This document shows, piece after piece, positions 1 to 26,751 of a stretch of 27,940 nt of DNA. Source of the stretch: a virus (Duplodnaviria; Heunggongvirae; Uroviricota; Caudoviricetes); the IMG/VR virus record IMGVR_UViG_2778261462_000004; one strand, 5' to 3'. Numbering within the stretch: position 1 is the stretch's first letter; each line of letters starts with the position of its first letter. The notes under the pieces are model-generated. The model worked only from the letters and a program-made list of their open reading frames with translations, made no database searches and was not told the DNA's origin. Both the position numbers and the translations under genes were made by a program.

Positions 1-1011
1 TTATAACGTTACTCCACCGTTAAGAGGATTCAGCGCGACGGCGTTCTGCAGGTAGTCAGGCGCAAGGTGAGCGTAGGCCATCGTCTGCTGAATGCTCGCA
101 TGCCCGAGAATCTGCTGCAGCGCAATTATGTTGCCCCCGTTCATCATGAAATGACTTGCGAATGTGTGTCGCAGGATGTGAGTTGCCTGATTGGGTGGTA
201 TGTCAGGTTTCACTCTGCGTAAAATTCCGCAAAACTTCTCATAATCGACCTTGAACAATTTAGCGCTAGCCTCCTCTTTAACTTTTTTCTCCAGTTCCTC
301 AGAAATTGGCACGGTTCGCTTTTTGCCGTTTTTGGTTTTCAAAAAGGTAACCCTGCAGCTTGTTATCTGTGCTGGTTTCAGTGTGGCAACTTCCGTCCAT
401 CTTCCGCCTGTGCTCAGGCACAAAAGCGCGACCAGCAAGTCATCACCAACCAAAACGCTTAACAGCTTCTCGATTTCTGATTTCTCCAGAAATGTCATTT
501 CCGGGTTGGCTTCCGCCAGTGGCGGCAGTCCATGAATAGGATGTTGCCCGGAAAACTCATCCAACTGGATTAGCTTGGTGAACATGCCCGATAAGCGGTA
601 CATGTCACGATTTATCGTCGCGGCGCTGATGCCATCACGCAGGCGCGTAGAGCGATAATCCATCAGAGCTCTTTTGCTAACCCGGCTCACCGGCATATCA
701 CCTATGCCGCTGATAGTCTTGAGCAGGTGATTAAACTCTTTTGTGCCGTGTTCATGGTTTTGTCCGTGATACTTCCACCAGACGTCAAGCAATTCCGCTA
801 AAGTGCGACGGTCTGCTCGCTGGCCTGCCCATTCTTTCTGGCTGGCATTGGCGATGGTGTATCGCTCAAATGCTACCGCCTCAGCCTTTCTTTCAAACTT
901 CCTGCGGATGCGTTTTCCATCGCGACCGCGAGGTCTAATGTCCACTTCATAGCGACCATCATCGAGCTTCTTAATTGCCATAAGAAAGCCCTCCGGCGCT
1001 GTGCTCACCAT
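1..1011 (-). CDS. int: P2-type tyrosine integrase (stop codon at window positions 1-3)
   Basis: 336-aa ORF; C-terminal catalytic signature visible (..ATHILRHTFASH.. and ..GHASIQQTMAYAHL.., the R/H-x-x-R and Tyr nucleophile region of tyrosine recombinases); sits 39 bp downstream of repressor C on the same strand as in the P2 C-int arrangement. Confidence 0.9.
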   Translation of the reverse strand: MVSTAPEGFLMAIKKLDDGRYEVDIRPRGRDGKRIRRKFERKAEAVAFERYTIANASQKEWAGQRADRRTLAELLDVWWKYHGQNHEHGTKEFNHLLKTISGIGDMPVSRVSKRALMDYRSTRLRDGISAATINRDMYRLSGMFTKLIQLDEFSGQHPIHGLPPLAEANPEMTFLEKSEIEKLLSVLVGDDLLVALLCLSTGGRWTEVATLKPAQITSCRVTFLKTKNGKKRTVPISEELEKKVKEEASAKLFKVDYEKFCGILRRVKPDIPPNQATHILRHTFASHFMMNGGNIIALQQILGHASIQQTMAYAHLAPDYLQNAVALNPLNGGVTL

Positions 1012-1050: not shown

Positions 1051-1344
1051 TTAACCAGTCTGTTTCTCGGAGTGGTCTGATTCCGTTGATTCTTGCCCAA
1101 TGTGTGCGAAAGCCGGTGCTATCTGACCAGCTTGCGGTGCTGTTTTATCTGTCATTAGCCAAAGTGTGTATTTCTGAAACTGAGGAGTGTTTGTGATTTT
1201 CATCACCACTCCCAAGCCGGGCTCTGCATGTCCTCCCTCGTAATTTTTTAACGTGCTAAGCGCTAGTCCACTGATTTCACAAAACTTTACTTGAGTTAAA
1301 CCCTCTGCTTTACGTATTGCCTTAATTTTCTCGGCTACGTTCAT
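1051..1344 (-). CDS. C: immunity repressor C (P2 C-like, 97 aa)
   Basis: Small ORF divergent from cox; N-terminal HTH-like segment and C-terminal ..QFxKYTLWxMT..APxxGQIAPAxAHxGQ.. matching my recollection of P2 C; size ~99 aa as in P2. Confidence 0.85.
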   Translation of the reverse strand: MNVAEKIKAIRKAEGLTQVKFCEISGLALSTLKNYEGGHAEPGLGVVMKITNTPQFQKYTLWLMTDKTAPQAGQIAPAFAHIGQESTESDHSEKQTG

Positions 1345-1374
1345 TTGACATGGTTCCTACTTTGAGACTATATT
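1345..1374 (+). promoter_or_regulatory. candidate early promoter Pe (sigma70-like): -35 TTGACA 1345-1350, 18-bp spacer, -10 TATATT 1369-1374
   Basis: Near-consensus hexamers read directly from the sequence, oriented toward cox; located in the C/cox divergent intergenic region. Confidence 0.5.
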
Positions 1375-1377
1375 CGC

Positions 1378-1409
1378 CTGAAAAGGTCTAAAGGTAAGAA
1401 CCTTTTCAG
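1378..1409. promoter_or_regulatory. perfect 10-bp inverted repeat CTGAAAAGGT-N12-ACCTTTTCAG, candidate operator of the immunity switch
   Basis: Arms at 1378-1387 and 1400-1409 are exact reverse complements; lies immediately downstream of the candidate Pe -10; no T-tract on either side, so not a terminator. Confidence 0.45.
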
Positions 1410-1480
1410 AGTGGAAGCCAACCGAGCAGAAACGAGCTTGAGCGGTTTCTAAGGGGTTGGATCTAGTGAGGGTATCACAA

Positions 1481-1753
1481 ATGGAACCAAACGATTATTT
1501 GTTGCAGTACCCGCTCGACGCGGTTCATGTTGAAAAGTTTGCTGAGTTATTAGGCAAGCCAAAAACGGCTGTTGCAGAAATGGTGAAAGCTAACAAGCTA
1601 CCGGTAATTGAGCTTCGGGATCCATGCAAACCGAATGCTCGCGCCGGTGAAAAGTGGGTTTTCATCCCGGAATTTAATCGCGCAGTTCGTGAGGCGTTCT
1701 ACAACCGACCGGTAGAACAGCGTGACGCGTGGCTGCTTTGGATGGGGCTTTGA
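1481..1753 (+). CDS. cox: Cox-like excisionase/early transcriptional regulator (90 aa from ATG 1481; ORF track starts at an upstream TTG 1457)
   Basis: GAGG at 1468-1471 nine nt before ATG 1481; ..KLPVIELRDP..RAGEKWVFIPEFN..RDAWLLWMGL resembles P2 Cox (91 aa) as recalled; first gene of the rightward early operon. Confidence 0.8.
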   Translation: MEPNDYLLQYPLDAVHVEKFAELLGKPKTAVAEMVKANKLPVIELRDPCKPNARAGEKWVFIPEFNRAVREAFYNRPVEQRDAWLLWMGL

Positions 1754-3508: not shown

Positions 3509-5789
3509 AATTCGGGGGCGTTCTGCCCCTACACCGCCACCACCATTTGCAAAAAACACCGGCAAAGAGTTTGCCGGTGTTTACTCATGGAACGCGCCGC
3601 GTGAGGCTATTGGGCGTGAGAGACCCCTTACACGTGACGAGCTGCGTCAGGTGCAAGGGGTTTTATCTAAAATTGACCGCCTACCTTACTTTTTAAGTTC
3701 TCTGTTTACTTCGCGCTATGAATATATCAGGCGCAACAAAAGCCCTGTGCATGGGCTGTATTTCCTCAAGTCGACATTTCTGCGCCGGTTGTGGCCGCGC
3801 ATTGAGCGGGTTAATCAGCGTAACGAAATGAATACAGAGGCGTCGCTGCTGTTTCTTGCTGAAAGTGAGAATTACGCGCGCCTGCCGGGGATGAACGATA
3901 AAGAGCTGAAAAAATTTGCGTCTCGTATCGCCTCGCAGCTTTTCATCATGTACGAGGAGTTAAGCGACGCATGGGCTGAGGCGCACGGTGGCAAAGAGTC
4001 GCTTTTTACCGATGAGGCTCAGGCGCACCTGTACGGTCATGTTGCTGGCGCAGCTCGTGCTTTTAATGTTGCCCCGCTTTTCTGGAAGAAATACCGCAAA
4101 GGCCTGATGACAATCCGACAGGCATTTTCCGCCGTCGCTCGCCTGATTAACGATGAATGGTGGACTAACCAGCTTAAGGCGCAGCGCATGCGCTGGCATG
4201 AAGCGCTGCTGATTGCTGCAGGCGAGGTGAATAAAGACCGCTCGCCGTATGCCAGTAAAAACGCCATCCGTGATGTGCATGCACGCCGCCTGGCAAATCT
4301 TGAATACCTGAAATCCTGCGAGCTGGAAAACAAAGTTACCGGCGAACGTATCGACCTTATCAGCAAAGTGATGGGAAGTATTTCCAATCCTGAAATTCGC
4401 CGCATGGAGCTGATGAACACCATTGCGGGGATTGAGCGTTATGCCGCTGCTGAGGGTGATGTCGGTATGTTTATCACGCTGACTGCACCGTCGAAGTATC
4501 ACCCGACTCGTCAAGTCGGGAAGGGTAAAGATAAGACTGTACAGCTTAATCATAGCTGGAATGGTGAGGCTTACACCCCGAAGGATGCGCAGCGTTATCT
4601 TTGCCGTATCTGGAGCCTGATGCGTACCGCTTTCAAAGATAATGATTTGCAGGTTTACGGTATGCGCGTCGTCGAACCGCACCATGACGGGACGCCGCAC
4701 TGGCACATGATGCTGTTTTGCAAGCGCCAGCAACGCAAAGAAATCACCGAAATTATGCGTCGTTATGCTCTCAAAGAGGATGGCGACGAGCGCGGTGCTG
4801 CTCGCAACCGCTTTCAGGCTAAGCACCTGAACAAAGGCGGTGCGGCCGGGTACATCGCGAAATACATCGCCAAAAATATCGACGGTTACGCGTTAGATGG
4901 CGAGCTCGATAAAGATACCGGCAAACCGCTCAAAGATACCGCCGCCGCTGTTACTGCATGGGCGTCAACGTGGCGAATCCCTCAGTTTAAGCCGATTGGC
5001 CTGCCGACGATGGGCGCTTACCGTGAGCTGCGCAAGCTGCCTCGCGGGGTCAGTATTGCTGATGAGTTTGACGAGCGTGTCGAAGCAGCACGCGCCGCGG
5101 CTGATGGCGGTGATTTCGACCTGTATATCACTGCTCAGGGCGGCGCAAATGTCCCGCGCGACGGTCAGACCGTCAGGGTCGCCCGTAGCGTCAGTGATGA
5201 GGTTAACGACTACGAAGAAGATATCGAGAGGGTGGTCGGTATTTACGCGCCTCACCTCGGCGCGCGTCACGTTCACATTACCCGGTCATCAGAATGGCGC
5301 ATCGTTCCAAAGGTTTTGGCCGTTGAGCCTTTGACCTTAAAAAGCGGCATCGCCGCGCCTCGGAGTCCTGTCAATAACTGTGGAAAGCTCACCGGCGGTG
5401 ACGTTTCGGTTATGACCACTACACCGTCTGAGTATGCCGCAGCGGTGTTAAATCTTGTTGATGACGGGGTTATCGCATGGGATGACCCCGAAGTCGTGAC
5501 GGCGCTCAAGGGCGCACTAAAACACGACGCGCCGCAGCAAAATCGTCAGCAAAGAAGTGGAGAGCCATTAAAACAGCATGACGTTGCCCCATCAGGCAGG
5601 CTGACTAAATCCGAACGCGCGCAAATACCGCGCATCCGCTTTGACCTTGCGCAGCAAGGCATCACTCCGAAGCGCTGGGAGCTTGAGGCGCTGGCGCGTG
5701 GTGCGACCGTGACATACCACGGGCAGAAATTCACATATCCGGTCGCTGATGAGTGGCCGGGGTTTACTGGTATATCTGAATGGGGGTAA
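3498..5789 (+). CDS. A: rolling-circle replication initiator A (HUH endonuclease), 763 aa from ATG 3498
   Basis: HUH motif ..GTPHWHMMLF.. and double-tyrosine active-site motif ..AGYIAKYIAKN.. visible in the translation; N-terminus MAVEIRGR..AGVYSWNAPREAIGRERPLTRDE.. close to P2 gpA as recalled. Confidence 0.93.
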   Translation: MAVEIRGRSAPTPPPPFAKNTGKEFAGVYSWNAPREAIGRERPLTRDELRQVQGVLSKIDRLPYFLSSLFTSRYEYIRRNKSPVHGLYFLKSTFLRRLWPRIERVNQRNEMNTEASLLFLAESENYARLPGMNDKELKKFASRIASQLFIMYEELSDAWAEAHGGKESLFTDEAQAHLYGHVAGAARAFNVAPLFWKKYRKGLMTIRQAFSAVARLINDEWWTNQLKAQRMRWHEALLIAAGEVNKDRSPYASKNAIRDVHARRLANLEYLKSCELENKVTGERIDLISKVMGSISNPEIRRMELMNTIAGIERYAAAEGDVGMFITLTAPSKYHPTRQVGKGKDKTVQLNHSWNGEAYTPKDAQRYLCRIWSLMRTAFKDNDLQVYGMRVVEPHHDGTPHWHMMLFCKRQQRKEITEIMRRYALKEDGDERGAARNRFQAKHLNKGGAAGYIAKYIAKNIDGYALDGELDKDTGKPLKDTAAAVTAWASTWRIPQFKPIGLPTMGAYRELRKLPRGVSIADEFDERVEAARAAADGGDFDLYITAQGGANVPRDGQTVRVARSVSDEVNDYEEDIERVVGIYAPHLGARHVHITRSSEWRIVPKVLAVEPLTLKSGIAAPRSPVNNCGKLTGGDVSVMTTTPSEYAAAVLNLVDDGVIAWDDPEVVTALKGALKHDAPQQNRQQRSGEPLKQHDVAPSGRLTKSERAQIPRIRFDLAQQGITPKRWELEALARGATVTYHGQKFTYPVADEWPGFTGISEWG

Positions 5790-5806
5790 TTGTGAGAAAA
5801 ATCTGT

Positions 5807-5980
5807 GTGATTGTTGGGTGGATTGCTGGGCTGTCGCTTTTCTTTCTGCTTCTTGGTTGGGCGGGTGAGCAAGACCGTAAAGACTGTGAGGAACGGATAG
5901 CAACAGAGCTGAAAACCACGGCTGTTTTTATAAACAATAAGTGCATGGTGAAGGGGTATGGCCGCTTTGACGGGAGGTGA
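5807..5980 (+). CDS. small single-pass membrane protein (57 aa from GTG 5807; alternative starts ATG 5780 / GTG 5792)
   Basis: Hydrophobic stretch ICVIVGWIAGLSLFFLLLGW followed by a charged tail; GAGAAA 7 nt before GTG 5807; sits where P2 carries orf91/tin/old; followed by a terminator. Confidence 0.4.
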   Translation: MIVGWIAGLSLFFLLLGWAGEQDRKDCEERIATELKTTAVFINNKCMVKGYGRFDGR

Positions 5981-6089
5981 CCTATCTGACCCGAGCAAAC
6001 GCCGCCGGTGCTGAAACTCGCTTTCAGTGCTGGCGGGGTTGAACAACGAGCCCCGCGAGGCGTTAGCCTGCCCCGTAGAGACCGCCCAC

Positions 6090-6118
6090 AACCGGCACGA
6101 TTAAAGCCGGTTTTTTTA
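6090..6118 (+). terminator. candidate intrinsic terminator of the early operon
   Basis: AACCGGC-acgattaaa-GCCGGTT hairpin followed by T7 run (6111-6117). Confidence 0.45.
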
Positions 6119-6277
6119 TGCCATTTTTCCGCGAATTTCCCGTTTTTAAGCCGTGCATGCAACAGGTGCATTGTTTTGCATGCGTCAGGCTTGCCCGTCT
6201 TGGCCGTGCGCCGCCAGTGCTGGCGCGGATCCAGAGTGGTCATGCAACTGCATTAAAACCGACCCATAAAGCGGGCA

Positions 6278-26304: not shown

Positions 26305-26341
26305 AACAAAAAGCCCCGCGATTGCGGGGCTTGTTTATTTT
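26305..26341. terminator. bidirectional intrinsic terminator between convergent ogr and the moron ORF
   Basis: GCCCCGC-gatt-GCGGGGC stem (26313-26330) flanked by an A-rich run upstream and TTGTTTATTTT downstream. Confidence 0.7.
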
Positions 26342-26751
26342 GACTTTGGCATTCCAAACATATGCGTTTTTGAGAGCATCACAACTTTAGCTCTGTCATC
26401 TGGCTCTTTACCCATCTCGTTACAAGTTGCGAGAGGCTGTTCGAGCACATAACCAAATGCTTTATGTTTATTCAGTACGTGCAATTCTTTAGTTGTTTTC
26501 ATGTAGGAATTCGGTACATCTTTTGTCCAAACATCCATGCAAATTCCTGAGCTTATGACCGCATCATAAATTTCAGGTGTAACTTGGTTTGCGTCCAAAA
26601 CGACAGTGACAATGTTATTACTTTCTTCTATTTCAATCGGTTGCCATAATTTTAGCTGCTTTTGCAAGGTTTTTACGTTATTCGTTTGGGCGTGGGCGGG
26701 GATAGACAGAAGAATGGCGACGACCGCAACTACCGATTTGAGGTTAAACAT
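26335..26751 (-). CDS. secreted/periplasmic protein of unknown function (138 aa), AT-rich moron
   Basis: Sec-type signal peptide MFNLKSVVAVVAILLSIPAHA-QT; AAGGA RBS 6 nt before ATG; candidate promoter (TTGTTT-17-TATAAA) upstream on the minus strand; AT-rich relative to the phage backbone by eye; two Cys in the mature part; no recognised family. Confidence 0.6.
   Translation of the reverse strand: MFNLKSVVAVVAILLSIPAHAQTNNVKTLQKQLKLWQPIEIEESNNIVTVVLDANQVTPEIYDAVISSGICMDVWTKDVPNSYMKTTKELHVLNKHKAFGYVLEQPLATCNEMGKEPDDRAKVVMLSKTHMFGMPKSK

Follow-up and report, generated by a model that had tools for sequence, protein, structure and literature searches.

The WPhi-type prophage and its immunity region

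The window (the whole stretch of DNA that was analyzed, 27,940 nt) is a P2-like (Peduovirus) prophage of the WPhi type from Escherichia, integrated beside the host gene fieF, which forms its right end. The same immunity region was found at 99.9% identity, adjoining cpxP, in E. coli strain CAVP776, and 1 of 5426 complete E. coli genomes carried it. The genes follow the order int (1-1011, minus strand), C (1051-1344, minus strand), cox (1481-1753), DUF5405, TraR-type, replication genes, and late genes, the last being 92-95% identical to those of known E. coli, Klebsiella, and Yersinia P2-like phages. Three of these genes lie in or beside the immunity region:

1-1011, minus strand: integrase gene, from the open reading frame list, 3' of C in the leftward (lysogenic) operon (Pfam Int_N and Phage_integrase)
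1051-1344, minus strand: C, P2-type immunity repressor of 97 aa with a single HTH domain (HTH_3; match to PDB 2XCJ/2L49, "C protein," E = 5e-26)
1481-1753, plus strand: cox, first gene of the early operon (Pfam Phage_Cox, E = 1.7e-24), its start aligned with those of WPhi cox and P37 cox

The C protein of the window is 75% identical to the C proteins of WPhi and Yersinia phage P37 and 48% identical to that of P2. Phage records contained no C protein above 77% identity and no switch DNA above 78%. As in P2/WPhi-type switches, an HTH repressor of about 100 aa that is homologous to P2 C faces a Cox-family gene at the head of the opposing operon, and int comes after C. A switch of the 186 CI type was not found here: the repressor has 97 aa and one HTH domain, and there is no cII-like reading frame between C and cox.

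Elsewhere in the window, an open reading frame of 138 aa with a hydrophobic N terminus (26335-26751, minus strand) lies between ogr with its terminator and host fieF; it gave no Pfam match and is also present in E. coli strain 600029. Most E. coli genomes match the window only from about position 26750 on, and this reading frame is therefore prophage cargo at the right end. In P2, tin and old are located in the variable region that separates gene A from the portal gene. A reading frame of 159 aa in the corresponding interval of the window (5764-6243, minus strand), which likewise gave no Pfam match, is possibly an accessory or defense gene by analogy. About 65 nt into the reading frame of replication gene A, an inverted repeat with perfect 13-bp arms around a 3-nt loop (AAACACCGGCAAA gag TTTGCCGGTGTTT, 3554-3582) is preceded by A-runs and followed by TTT, and looks like a bidirectional terminator or attenuator within the coding region.

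Early promoter and perfect inverted repeat between C and cox

Between the start codons of C and cox, the first features encountered in the rightward direction are the early promoter and a perfect dyad, the inner ends of which also delimit the putative operator box O2 described below:

1345-1374, plus strand: Pe, early promoter, with -35 TTGACA (1345-1350), an 18-nt spacer, and -10 TATATT (1369-1374)
1378-1387, plus strand: left arm of the perfect inverted repeat, CTGAAAAGGT, its last 3 nt being an edge of O2; conserved with covariation
1400-1409, plus strand: right arm of the perfect inverted repeat, ACCTTTTCAG, its first 3 nt being an edge of O2

In a consensus scan of 1000-1800, Pe matched 11 of 12 consensus positions and was the sole sigma-70-like site on either strand. 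CTGAAAAGGT and ACCTTTTCAG form a perfect inverted repeat around a 12-nt loop (1378-1409), located between C and cox. A sequence-only reading of this DNA had described the region as a C/cox immunity switch with a strong promoter (TTGACA-18-TATATT) aimed at cox and a perfect 10-bp inverted repeat with a 12-nt spacing right after it, and these elements were all borne out, a C homolog on the minus strand and a Cox-family gene flanking the region. That reading had also pointed to an internal AAAGGT direct repeat. The motif is indeed present twice (1382-1387 and 1390-1395), but its second copy is not conserved, as it becomes AAAAGT in two relatives of the same immunity group (L009 and L084; L numbers denote the loci collected below). 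AAAGGT-CT-AAAGGT was accordingly rejected as a pair of half-sites, the second copy varying in the nearest relatives and appearing incidental.

The window contained six separate perfect repeats whose arms measured 10 bp or more and whose loops measured 3-20 nt, against about 0.8 expected per 27.9 kb in first-order Markov simulations, so that a single such repeat is weak evidence by itself. The reality of the repeat at 1378-1409 rests on its conservation with compensatory changes in dozens of relatives and not on its own statistics.

Several other identities were considered for this repeat and discarded. For an intrinsic terminator at 1378-1409, no terminator-like site and no U-run were found on either strand, the sequence after the stem being AGAGUGG in the plus-strand direction and GCGAAUA in the minus-strand direction. 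Covariance models from Rfam 15 gave chance-level matches only (E of at least 0.48) over 1000-1900. An IHF site, sought by eye only, had a partial match in WPhi that was not conserved. A Cox site at the perfect repeat was set aside as well, the 12-nt direct repeat that WPhi Cox binds being further downstream.

Two putative C operator boxes in inverted orientation

The Pe spacer and the loop of the perfect repeat are occupied by two related sequences:

1352-1369, plus strand: O1, first putative C operator box, GGTTCCTACTTTGAGACT, filling the Pe spacer at the position of the mapped WPhi O1
1385-1402, minus strand: O2, second putative C operator box, located at about +5 to +22 relative to Pe; its minus-strand sequence, GGTTCTTACCTTTAGACC, is an inverted copy of O1

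Together they constitute an imperfect inverted repeat (1352-1368 / 1386-1402, 14/17) at the positions of WPhi O1 and O2. The boxes are 33 bp apart from center to center and identical at 14 of 17-18 positions when one is inverted. Over the inner 12 nt, 9 positions agree in inverted alignment versus 2 in direct alignment, and inner scores of at least 9 made up 0.16% of pairs in a cross-phage null; this and the other P values for the boxes are optimistic, as the 18-bp register was picked post hoc and the sequences are related. Across both strands of the entire 27.9-kb window, O2, on the opposite strand, was the only match to O1 with at most 3 mismatches, where 0.05 were expected. The best direct alignment of O1 with O2 reached 8/18, which is the null level, and a search of 1300-1500 for direct repeats of at least 8 nt (P2, Hy dis, or WPhi style, in or near Pe) returned none. 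The window thus has two related sites about three helical turns apart, as in the WPhi subtype, and these are not arranged head to tail.

Related loci were collected with a C-protein profile, 80 from viral contigs and 80 from bacterial contigs representing one genome per species. All WPhi-type members contain two 18-bp boxes, variable in sequence yet related to each other, that are 32-35 bp apart and occupy a common frame: the first box lies in the Pe spacer, and the second extends from the left-arm GGT through the loop to the right-arm ACC, 9-10 nt from the -10. Inner-12 identity in the best orientation averaged 8.2 between the boxes of one phage versus 4.3 across phages of different classes. 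When applied to WPhi, the orientation test recovered the experimentally known direct arrangement (8 direct, 5 inverted). Direct and inverted classes proved about equally many, the former comprising WPhi, L015/L025, L069/L092, L076, L088, and L095 and the latter the window, P37, L011, L023, L024, L031, L058, L080, and others.

Both orientations were met in a single pair of relatives. P37 (L002, 648-696) and L095, a prophage of Arsenophonus nasoniae, have an identical O1 (AGTCCTGACTTAATGACT), and D41E is the sole difference between their C proteins in residues 22-50 (helix 2-3 region). Their O2 boxes, that of L095 being read upstream of C, are reverse complements of each other at 16 of 18 positions. 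An O2 flip accompanied by the same O1 and the same C DNA-binding region supports the operator reading, and it suggests that the stem arms mediated an evolutionary inversion of the 12-nt loop. The variable box sequences of the window are unlike all others collected. The 12 inner bases of each box vary from one immunity class to another, and the boxes, rather than the arms of the perfect repeat, are the class-specific sequence.

These boxes can be compared with what has been published on P2-type repressors. As the sequence-only reading had stated, the literature assigns direct-repeat binding to P2-type C proteins and inverted-repeat binding to 186 CI (PMC1904268, PMC2995052), and all seven known classes seem to recognize direct repeats (PMC2995052). 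The inverted O1/O2 arrangement is absent from accessible literature descriptions, in which every characterized class is given as direct. In the crystal structure, P2 C is a symmetric dimer with recognition helices 26 Angstrom apart, and one dimer was proposed to bind per repeat (PMC2995052); given the two-fold symmetry of the dimer, it should make no difference which way an asymmetric box points. In WPhi, the mapped O2 half-site TATTGGTGAC spans positions 5-12 of the loop and two further bases at the start of the right arm. The reporter constructs end in ...GGTGACA and hence lack the right arm, and those with additional left-arm deletions of 6 or 10 nt were still repressed to 1-9% of the unrepressed level (PMC1904263). 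With O2 in the loop and repression retained in armless constructs, the arms are not the operator. The left third of the proposed WPhi O2 box could also be deleted without loss of in vivo repression (PMC1904263), and by analogy the full 18 bp may be dispensable in some classes.

The boxes also adjoin the translation start of the repressor. In the window, as in all relatives, the C start codon touches the Pe -35 hexamer (CAT directly followed by TTGACA, in the 1342-1358 region), and the C ribosome-binding site, AGGAA (complement of 1354-1358), falls within O1. GGTTCC, which is conserved at the left of many O1 boxes, may represent translation signals as well as repressor contacts.

More distant C relatives in Pseudomonas and Oceanospirillum have a pair of boxes, each 16-18 bp long and fully palindromic, of which the first lies in the promoter spacer and the second shortly after it (L128, L130, L131, L134, L136, L143, L146, L150, L151, and L156-L158; upstream of C, about 880-1000, reverse strand). 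Examples are GTTCC-N6-GGAAC, GGTCCC-N4-GGGACC, and GTTCCTTGCACGGAAC in Pseudomonas. Palindromic boxes of this kind look like the ancestral form of the O1/O2 arrangement.

A covarying stem frames O2 throughout the family

The core of the perfect repeat, AAAAGGT-N12-ACCTTTT, was found at the same position in WPhi, P37, and almost all of some 55 distinct related switches. WPhi reads tCAAAAGGT-N12-ACCTTTTGa and P37 reads CCGAAAAGGT-N12-ACCTTTTCGG, at an unchanged distance to the same -10. The stem was present in 46 distinct switch regions from the 80 viral contigs (72-80 nt compared; 52 over 150 nt), as well as in prophages of Yokenella, Klebsiella, Kosakonia, Serratia, Providencia, Photorhabdus, and Arsenophonus, and the loop and Pe-spacer sequences of these stem-bearing switches are highly diverse. 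Changes within the core are compensated, as seen with AAATGG/CCATTT in L069, CAATGGT/ACCATTG in Providencia, where pairing is kept with different letters (CCCTCAATGGT/ACCATTGAGGG), and GCTTGGTGGT/ACCATCAAGC in Photorhabdus.

Covariation was quantified in two alignments, in tests that take the sequences as independent though they are phylogenetically related, which makes the P values optimistic. When 34 switches were aligned with MAFFT, 88% of the cells paired and cells with compensatory double changes numbered 20, versus 6.5 +/- 2.4 in shuffled data. An ungapped alignment of 36 sequences, anchored on the box and spanning 38 columns and 13 pairs, contained 41 compensatory cells versus 19.5 +/- 4.3 in shuffles; its covariation score was 0.247 versus 0.143 shuffled, a level reached by 0 of 500 shuffles, and slid registers scored at most 0.145. 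Complementarity of the flanks was greater within one phage than between phages, both in the A-tract and outside it (permutation P of about 2e-4). Since the compensatory changes preserve pairing, the perfect repeat is a selected stem-loop.

Selection of this kind could also operate on DNA. In that case, the stem would be a DNA-level feature only, namely, a remnant of an ancestral palindromic O2 combined with symmetric A/T tracts that aid bending by C, and would have no role in RNA. Such an origin agrees with the fully palindromic boxes of distant relatives, with the GGT...AC frame that O1 has in common with O2, with the bend of about 90 degrees that C introduces into its operator (PMC2995052), and with the A4/T4 tracts that are symmetric around O2 in most enterobacterial members. 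We nevertheless regard it as unlikely. Pairing is kept out to 10-13 bp, which exceeds the need of an 18-bp dimer site, and it is kept in Providencia, Photorhabdus, and Arsenophonus, where the A-tract has been replaced. G.T pairs are tolerated in the stem core in four independent lineages, and in L069 a change in the left arm that is linked to the direct repeat has its compensatory partner in the right arm, which lies outside that repeat.

The stem in the predicted convergent early and lysogenic transcripts

Two further features lie between the stem and cox:

1469-1477, minus strand: Pc, predicted lysogenic promoter, extended -10 element TGATACCCT, inside the promoter annotated in the WPhi record AJ245959
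1418-1460 (arms 1418-1433 and 1445-1460), unstranded: second, imperfect inverted repeat, CCAACCGAGCAGAAAC / GTTTCTAAGGGGTTGG, from the repeat search, with recurring outer arms

In the WPhi record AJ245959, the Pe promoter is annotated to 6 nt past the -10, and Pc is placed on the opposite strand beside cox; the convergent WPhi transcripts overlap by 82 nt (PMC1904263). Based on alignment with this record and on the 82-nt overlap, the Pe start of the window is expected at G1380/A1381. Of 64 distinct switches, 63 have the Pc motif, TGnTAnnCT. The motif overlaps the ribosome-binding site of cox, and Pc appears to be an extended -10 promoter with no recognizable -35. The Pc start is predicted at about 1462-1464, and transcription would proceed leftward through both repeats into C. 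A Pe start 6-7 nt past the -10, taken together with the conserved Pc -10, gives an overlap of about 82 nt, equal to the published WPhi figure. At the sequence level, then, the promoters stand face to face and their transcripts overlap.

The outer arms of the second repeat recur as CCAGYC...GRCTGG in nearly all relatives, and the repeat encloses the region equivalent to the 12-nt direct repeats bound by WPhi Cox (PMC5009727). The second repeat starts 2-4 nt from where the Pc transcript is predicted to begin, and hence both convergent RNAs would open with a hairpin. The predicted early RNA starts at the base of the invariant stem core and has a hairpin of 7-8 bp at its 5' end. The covarying outer pairs (1377-1380 with 1407-1410) lie upstream of the predicted Pe start, so that their pairing is possible only in the leftward C transcript or in DNA. 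G.U-type cells in the stem numbered 14 on the plus strand versus 9 on the minus strand, with no clear strand bias; in the stem core, all six such cells, from four independent lineages, are on the plus strand. In WPhi, replacement of the phage flanks by vector DNA raised Pe reporter activity about 100-fold, Pc and the second repeat being lost in the same exchange (PMC1904263), and such a rise would fit an inhibitory leader.

For the C leader of the window, RNAfold preferred a helix between O2 and O1 over the conserved hairpin. For the predicted leader (minus strand, 1464 to 1325), the structure of lowest energy contains exactly this helix over the AGGAACC region (z = -2.7), which is what would be seen if the 17-nt imperfect repeat (1352-1368 / 1386-1402) were not an operator pair and instead paired within the C mRNA leader, occluding the ribosome-binding site of C and placing the repressor under translational control. 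We consider this quite improbable, as 15 inverted switches displayed no excess of minus-strand G.U-compatible mismatches (16 versus 29, with 15 of the 29 belonging to the fixed ACT/ACC end), classes with direct boxes (WPhi, L076, L069, and L095) cannot form the O2-O1 helix, one box sequence exists in both orientations with the same C, and the positions of the repeat coincide with the mapped WPhi O1 and O2. The O2-O1 helix may instead be a side effect with consequences for translation of C.

That the perfect repeat CTGAAAAGGT/ACCTTTTCAG is itself the C operator, with one dimer subunit on each arm and a new immunity specificity defined thereby, has in its favor a perfect dyad directly downstream of Pe, the symmetry of C-family dimers and their resemblance to palindrome binders (PMC2995052), and an inner GGT/ACC that may well be contacted as the edges of O2, but is very improbable given an arm core that is identical in heteroimmune WPhi, P37, and dozens more and so allows no immunity discrimination, the repression retained by WPhi constructs lacking the right arm and deleted in the left, arm centers 22 bp apart versus 26 Angstrom between the recognition helices of the dimer, and, in distant relatives, arm letters that change freely as long as pairing stays.

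The sequence-only reading had joined a P2-type C protein to an inverted-repeat operator and a distinct immunity specificity. An inverted-repeat operator is plausible by way of 1352-1368 / 1386-1402 (14/17), but the repeat that had been flagged is not that operator. Likewise, the phage of the window probably does have its own immunity specificity, judging from the lack of any C above 77% identity in phage records and from boxes unlike all others collected; the perfect repeat is not the cause, because a stem core that heteroimmune phages such as WPhi and P37 have in common while their variable sequences differ cannot specify immunity. Comparison of the operator region with other P2-like immunity classes, which had been proposed as a check, spoke against the flagged repeat, which is a family-wide frame, with the variable boxes in the Pe spacer and the loop.

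Discussion

We interpret the interval as the Pe/operator half of a WPhi-type switch, in which a putative operator consisting of O1 and O2 overlaps a family-wide stem that most likely works in RNA, and we put the probability of this interpretation, drawn from sequence comparison, at roughly 60%. C would bind two 18-bp boxes with one dimer per box, box orientation being neutral for the protein, and C on O1 in the Pe spacer and on O2 at about +5 to +22, 33 bp apart, would block Pe. The perfect 10-bp repeat would frame O2, its inner GGT/ACC serving as box edges and its remainder being kept complementary. The stem most likely acts as an RNA stem-loop. Its inner 7-8 bp, at the extreme 5' end of the early (cox) transcript, would shield that mRNA, and pairing of the full 10-11 bp would be confined to the convergent C transcript, where the stem would precede the C start codon by about 33 nt.

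A wider proposal that unites these elements is tentative and, taken as a whole, somewhat unlikely. It holds that P2-type C is blind to orientation and binds as one dimer per box, the direct-repeat rule reflecting the three phages studied; that O2 sits in the loop of a selected RNA stem-loop common to both convergent transcripts, with arms that permit inversion of the loop; and that inverted classes would thereby gain a repressor-mRNA helix that hides the ribosome-binding site, an extra translational control relative to direct classes.

The most conspicuous dyad in the switch is not the immunity determinant, and a tempting misreading is thereby corrected. For an uncharacterized immunity class that few E. 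coli genomes carry, putative operator coordinates are now available. Among symmetric dimers that recognize nonpalindromic direct repeats, P2 C serves as the standard example. If related classes use their boxes head to head, with both orientations in one specificity group, the one-dimer-per-box model is supported, and, if true, one dimer per box would explain the free spacing and orientation seen in the P2 C family. By spanning O2, the conserved stem-loop may add a layer of RNA-level control to a classic convergent-promoter switch; full-text literature searches on P2-like switches found no mention of a stem-loop over O2 in the accessible P2 papers and no additional account of an inverted-repeat operator.

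Comparison with known systems

The transcriptional switch of WPhi was reportedly described by Liu and Haggard-Ljungquist in 1999. WPhi (AJ245959; PMC1904263, PMC1904268) resembles the window in its int-C / cox gene order, its Pe hexamers, and a C start codon that abuts the -35, in having the AAAAGGT-N12-ACCTTTT stem right after the -10 and sites in the Pe spacer and the stem loop that are 33-34 bp apart, and in an extended -10 Pc beside the cox start with an overlap of about 82 nt. The two differ in the box itself, which is TATTGGTGAC in WPhi and CTACTTTGAGAC plus an inverted copy in the window, so that the WPhi arrangement is direct and that of the window inverted, and the region equivalent to the Cox site differs in sequence.

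P2 shares with the window a homologous C (48%), Cox, and Int, face-to-face promoters, and two repressor sites that flank the Pe -10. Unlike those of the window, O1 and O2 of P2 (GTTTAGAT) are direct repeats of 8 bp with a spacing of 22 bp, and its two transcripts share only about 35 nt. P2 also lacks the AAAAGGT stem and has an unrelated repeat, TTTAGTGC-N10-GCACTAAA, further downstream. Phage 186 is P2 related, with convergent lytic and lysogenic promoters, and the operators of its CI are inverted repeats. However, CI of 186 is a two-domain repressor of about 190 aa that requires CII and uses distant sites, whereas the C protein of the window is a single-domain protein of 97 aa encoded without a cII gene.

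At the RNA level, 5'-terminal stem-loops of the ompA type stabilize E. coli mRNAs. The possible likeness to the window is that the invariant stem core begins at the predicted first base transcribed from Pe in essentially all members; unlike in the ompA type, the outer covarying pairs lie upstream of the Pe start, so that this parallel would account for only part of the stem.

Finally, the operators of P22 c2 and 434 are dyad sites of 14-18 bp bound by symmetric HTH dimers. P22 c2 can be superimposed on the P2 C dimer and shares its helix spacing of 26 Angstrom (PMC2995052), and both the 18-bp boxes and the palindromic boxes of Pseudomonas fit that mode of binding. In contrast to the P22 c2 and 434 operators, each box of the window is asymmetric, and the symmetry lies between the boxes and not within them.
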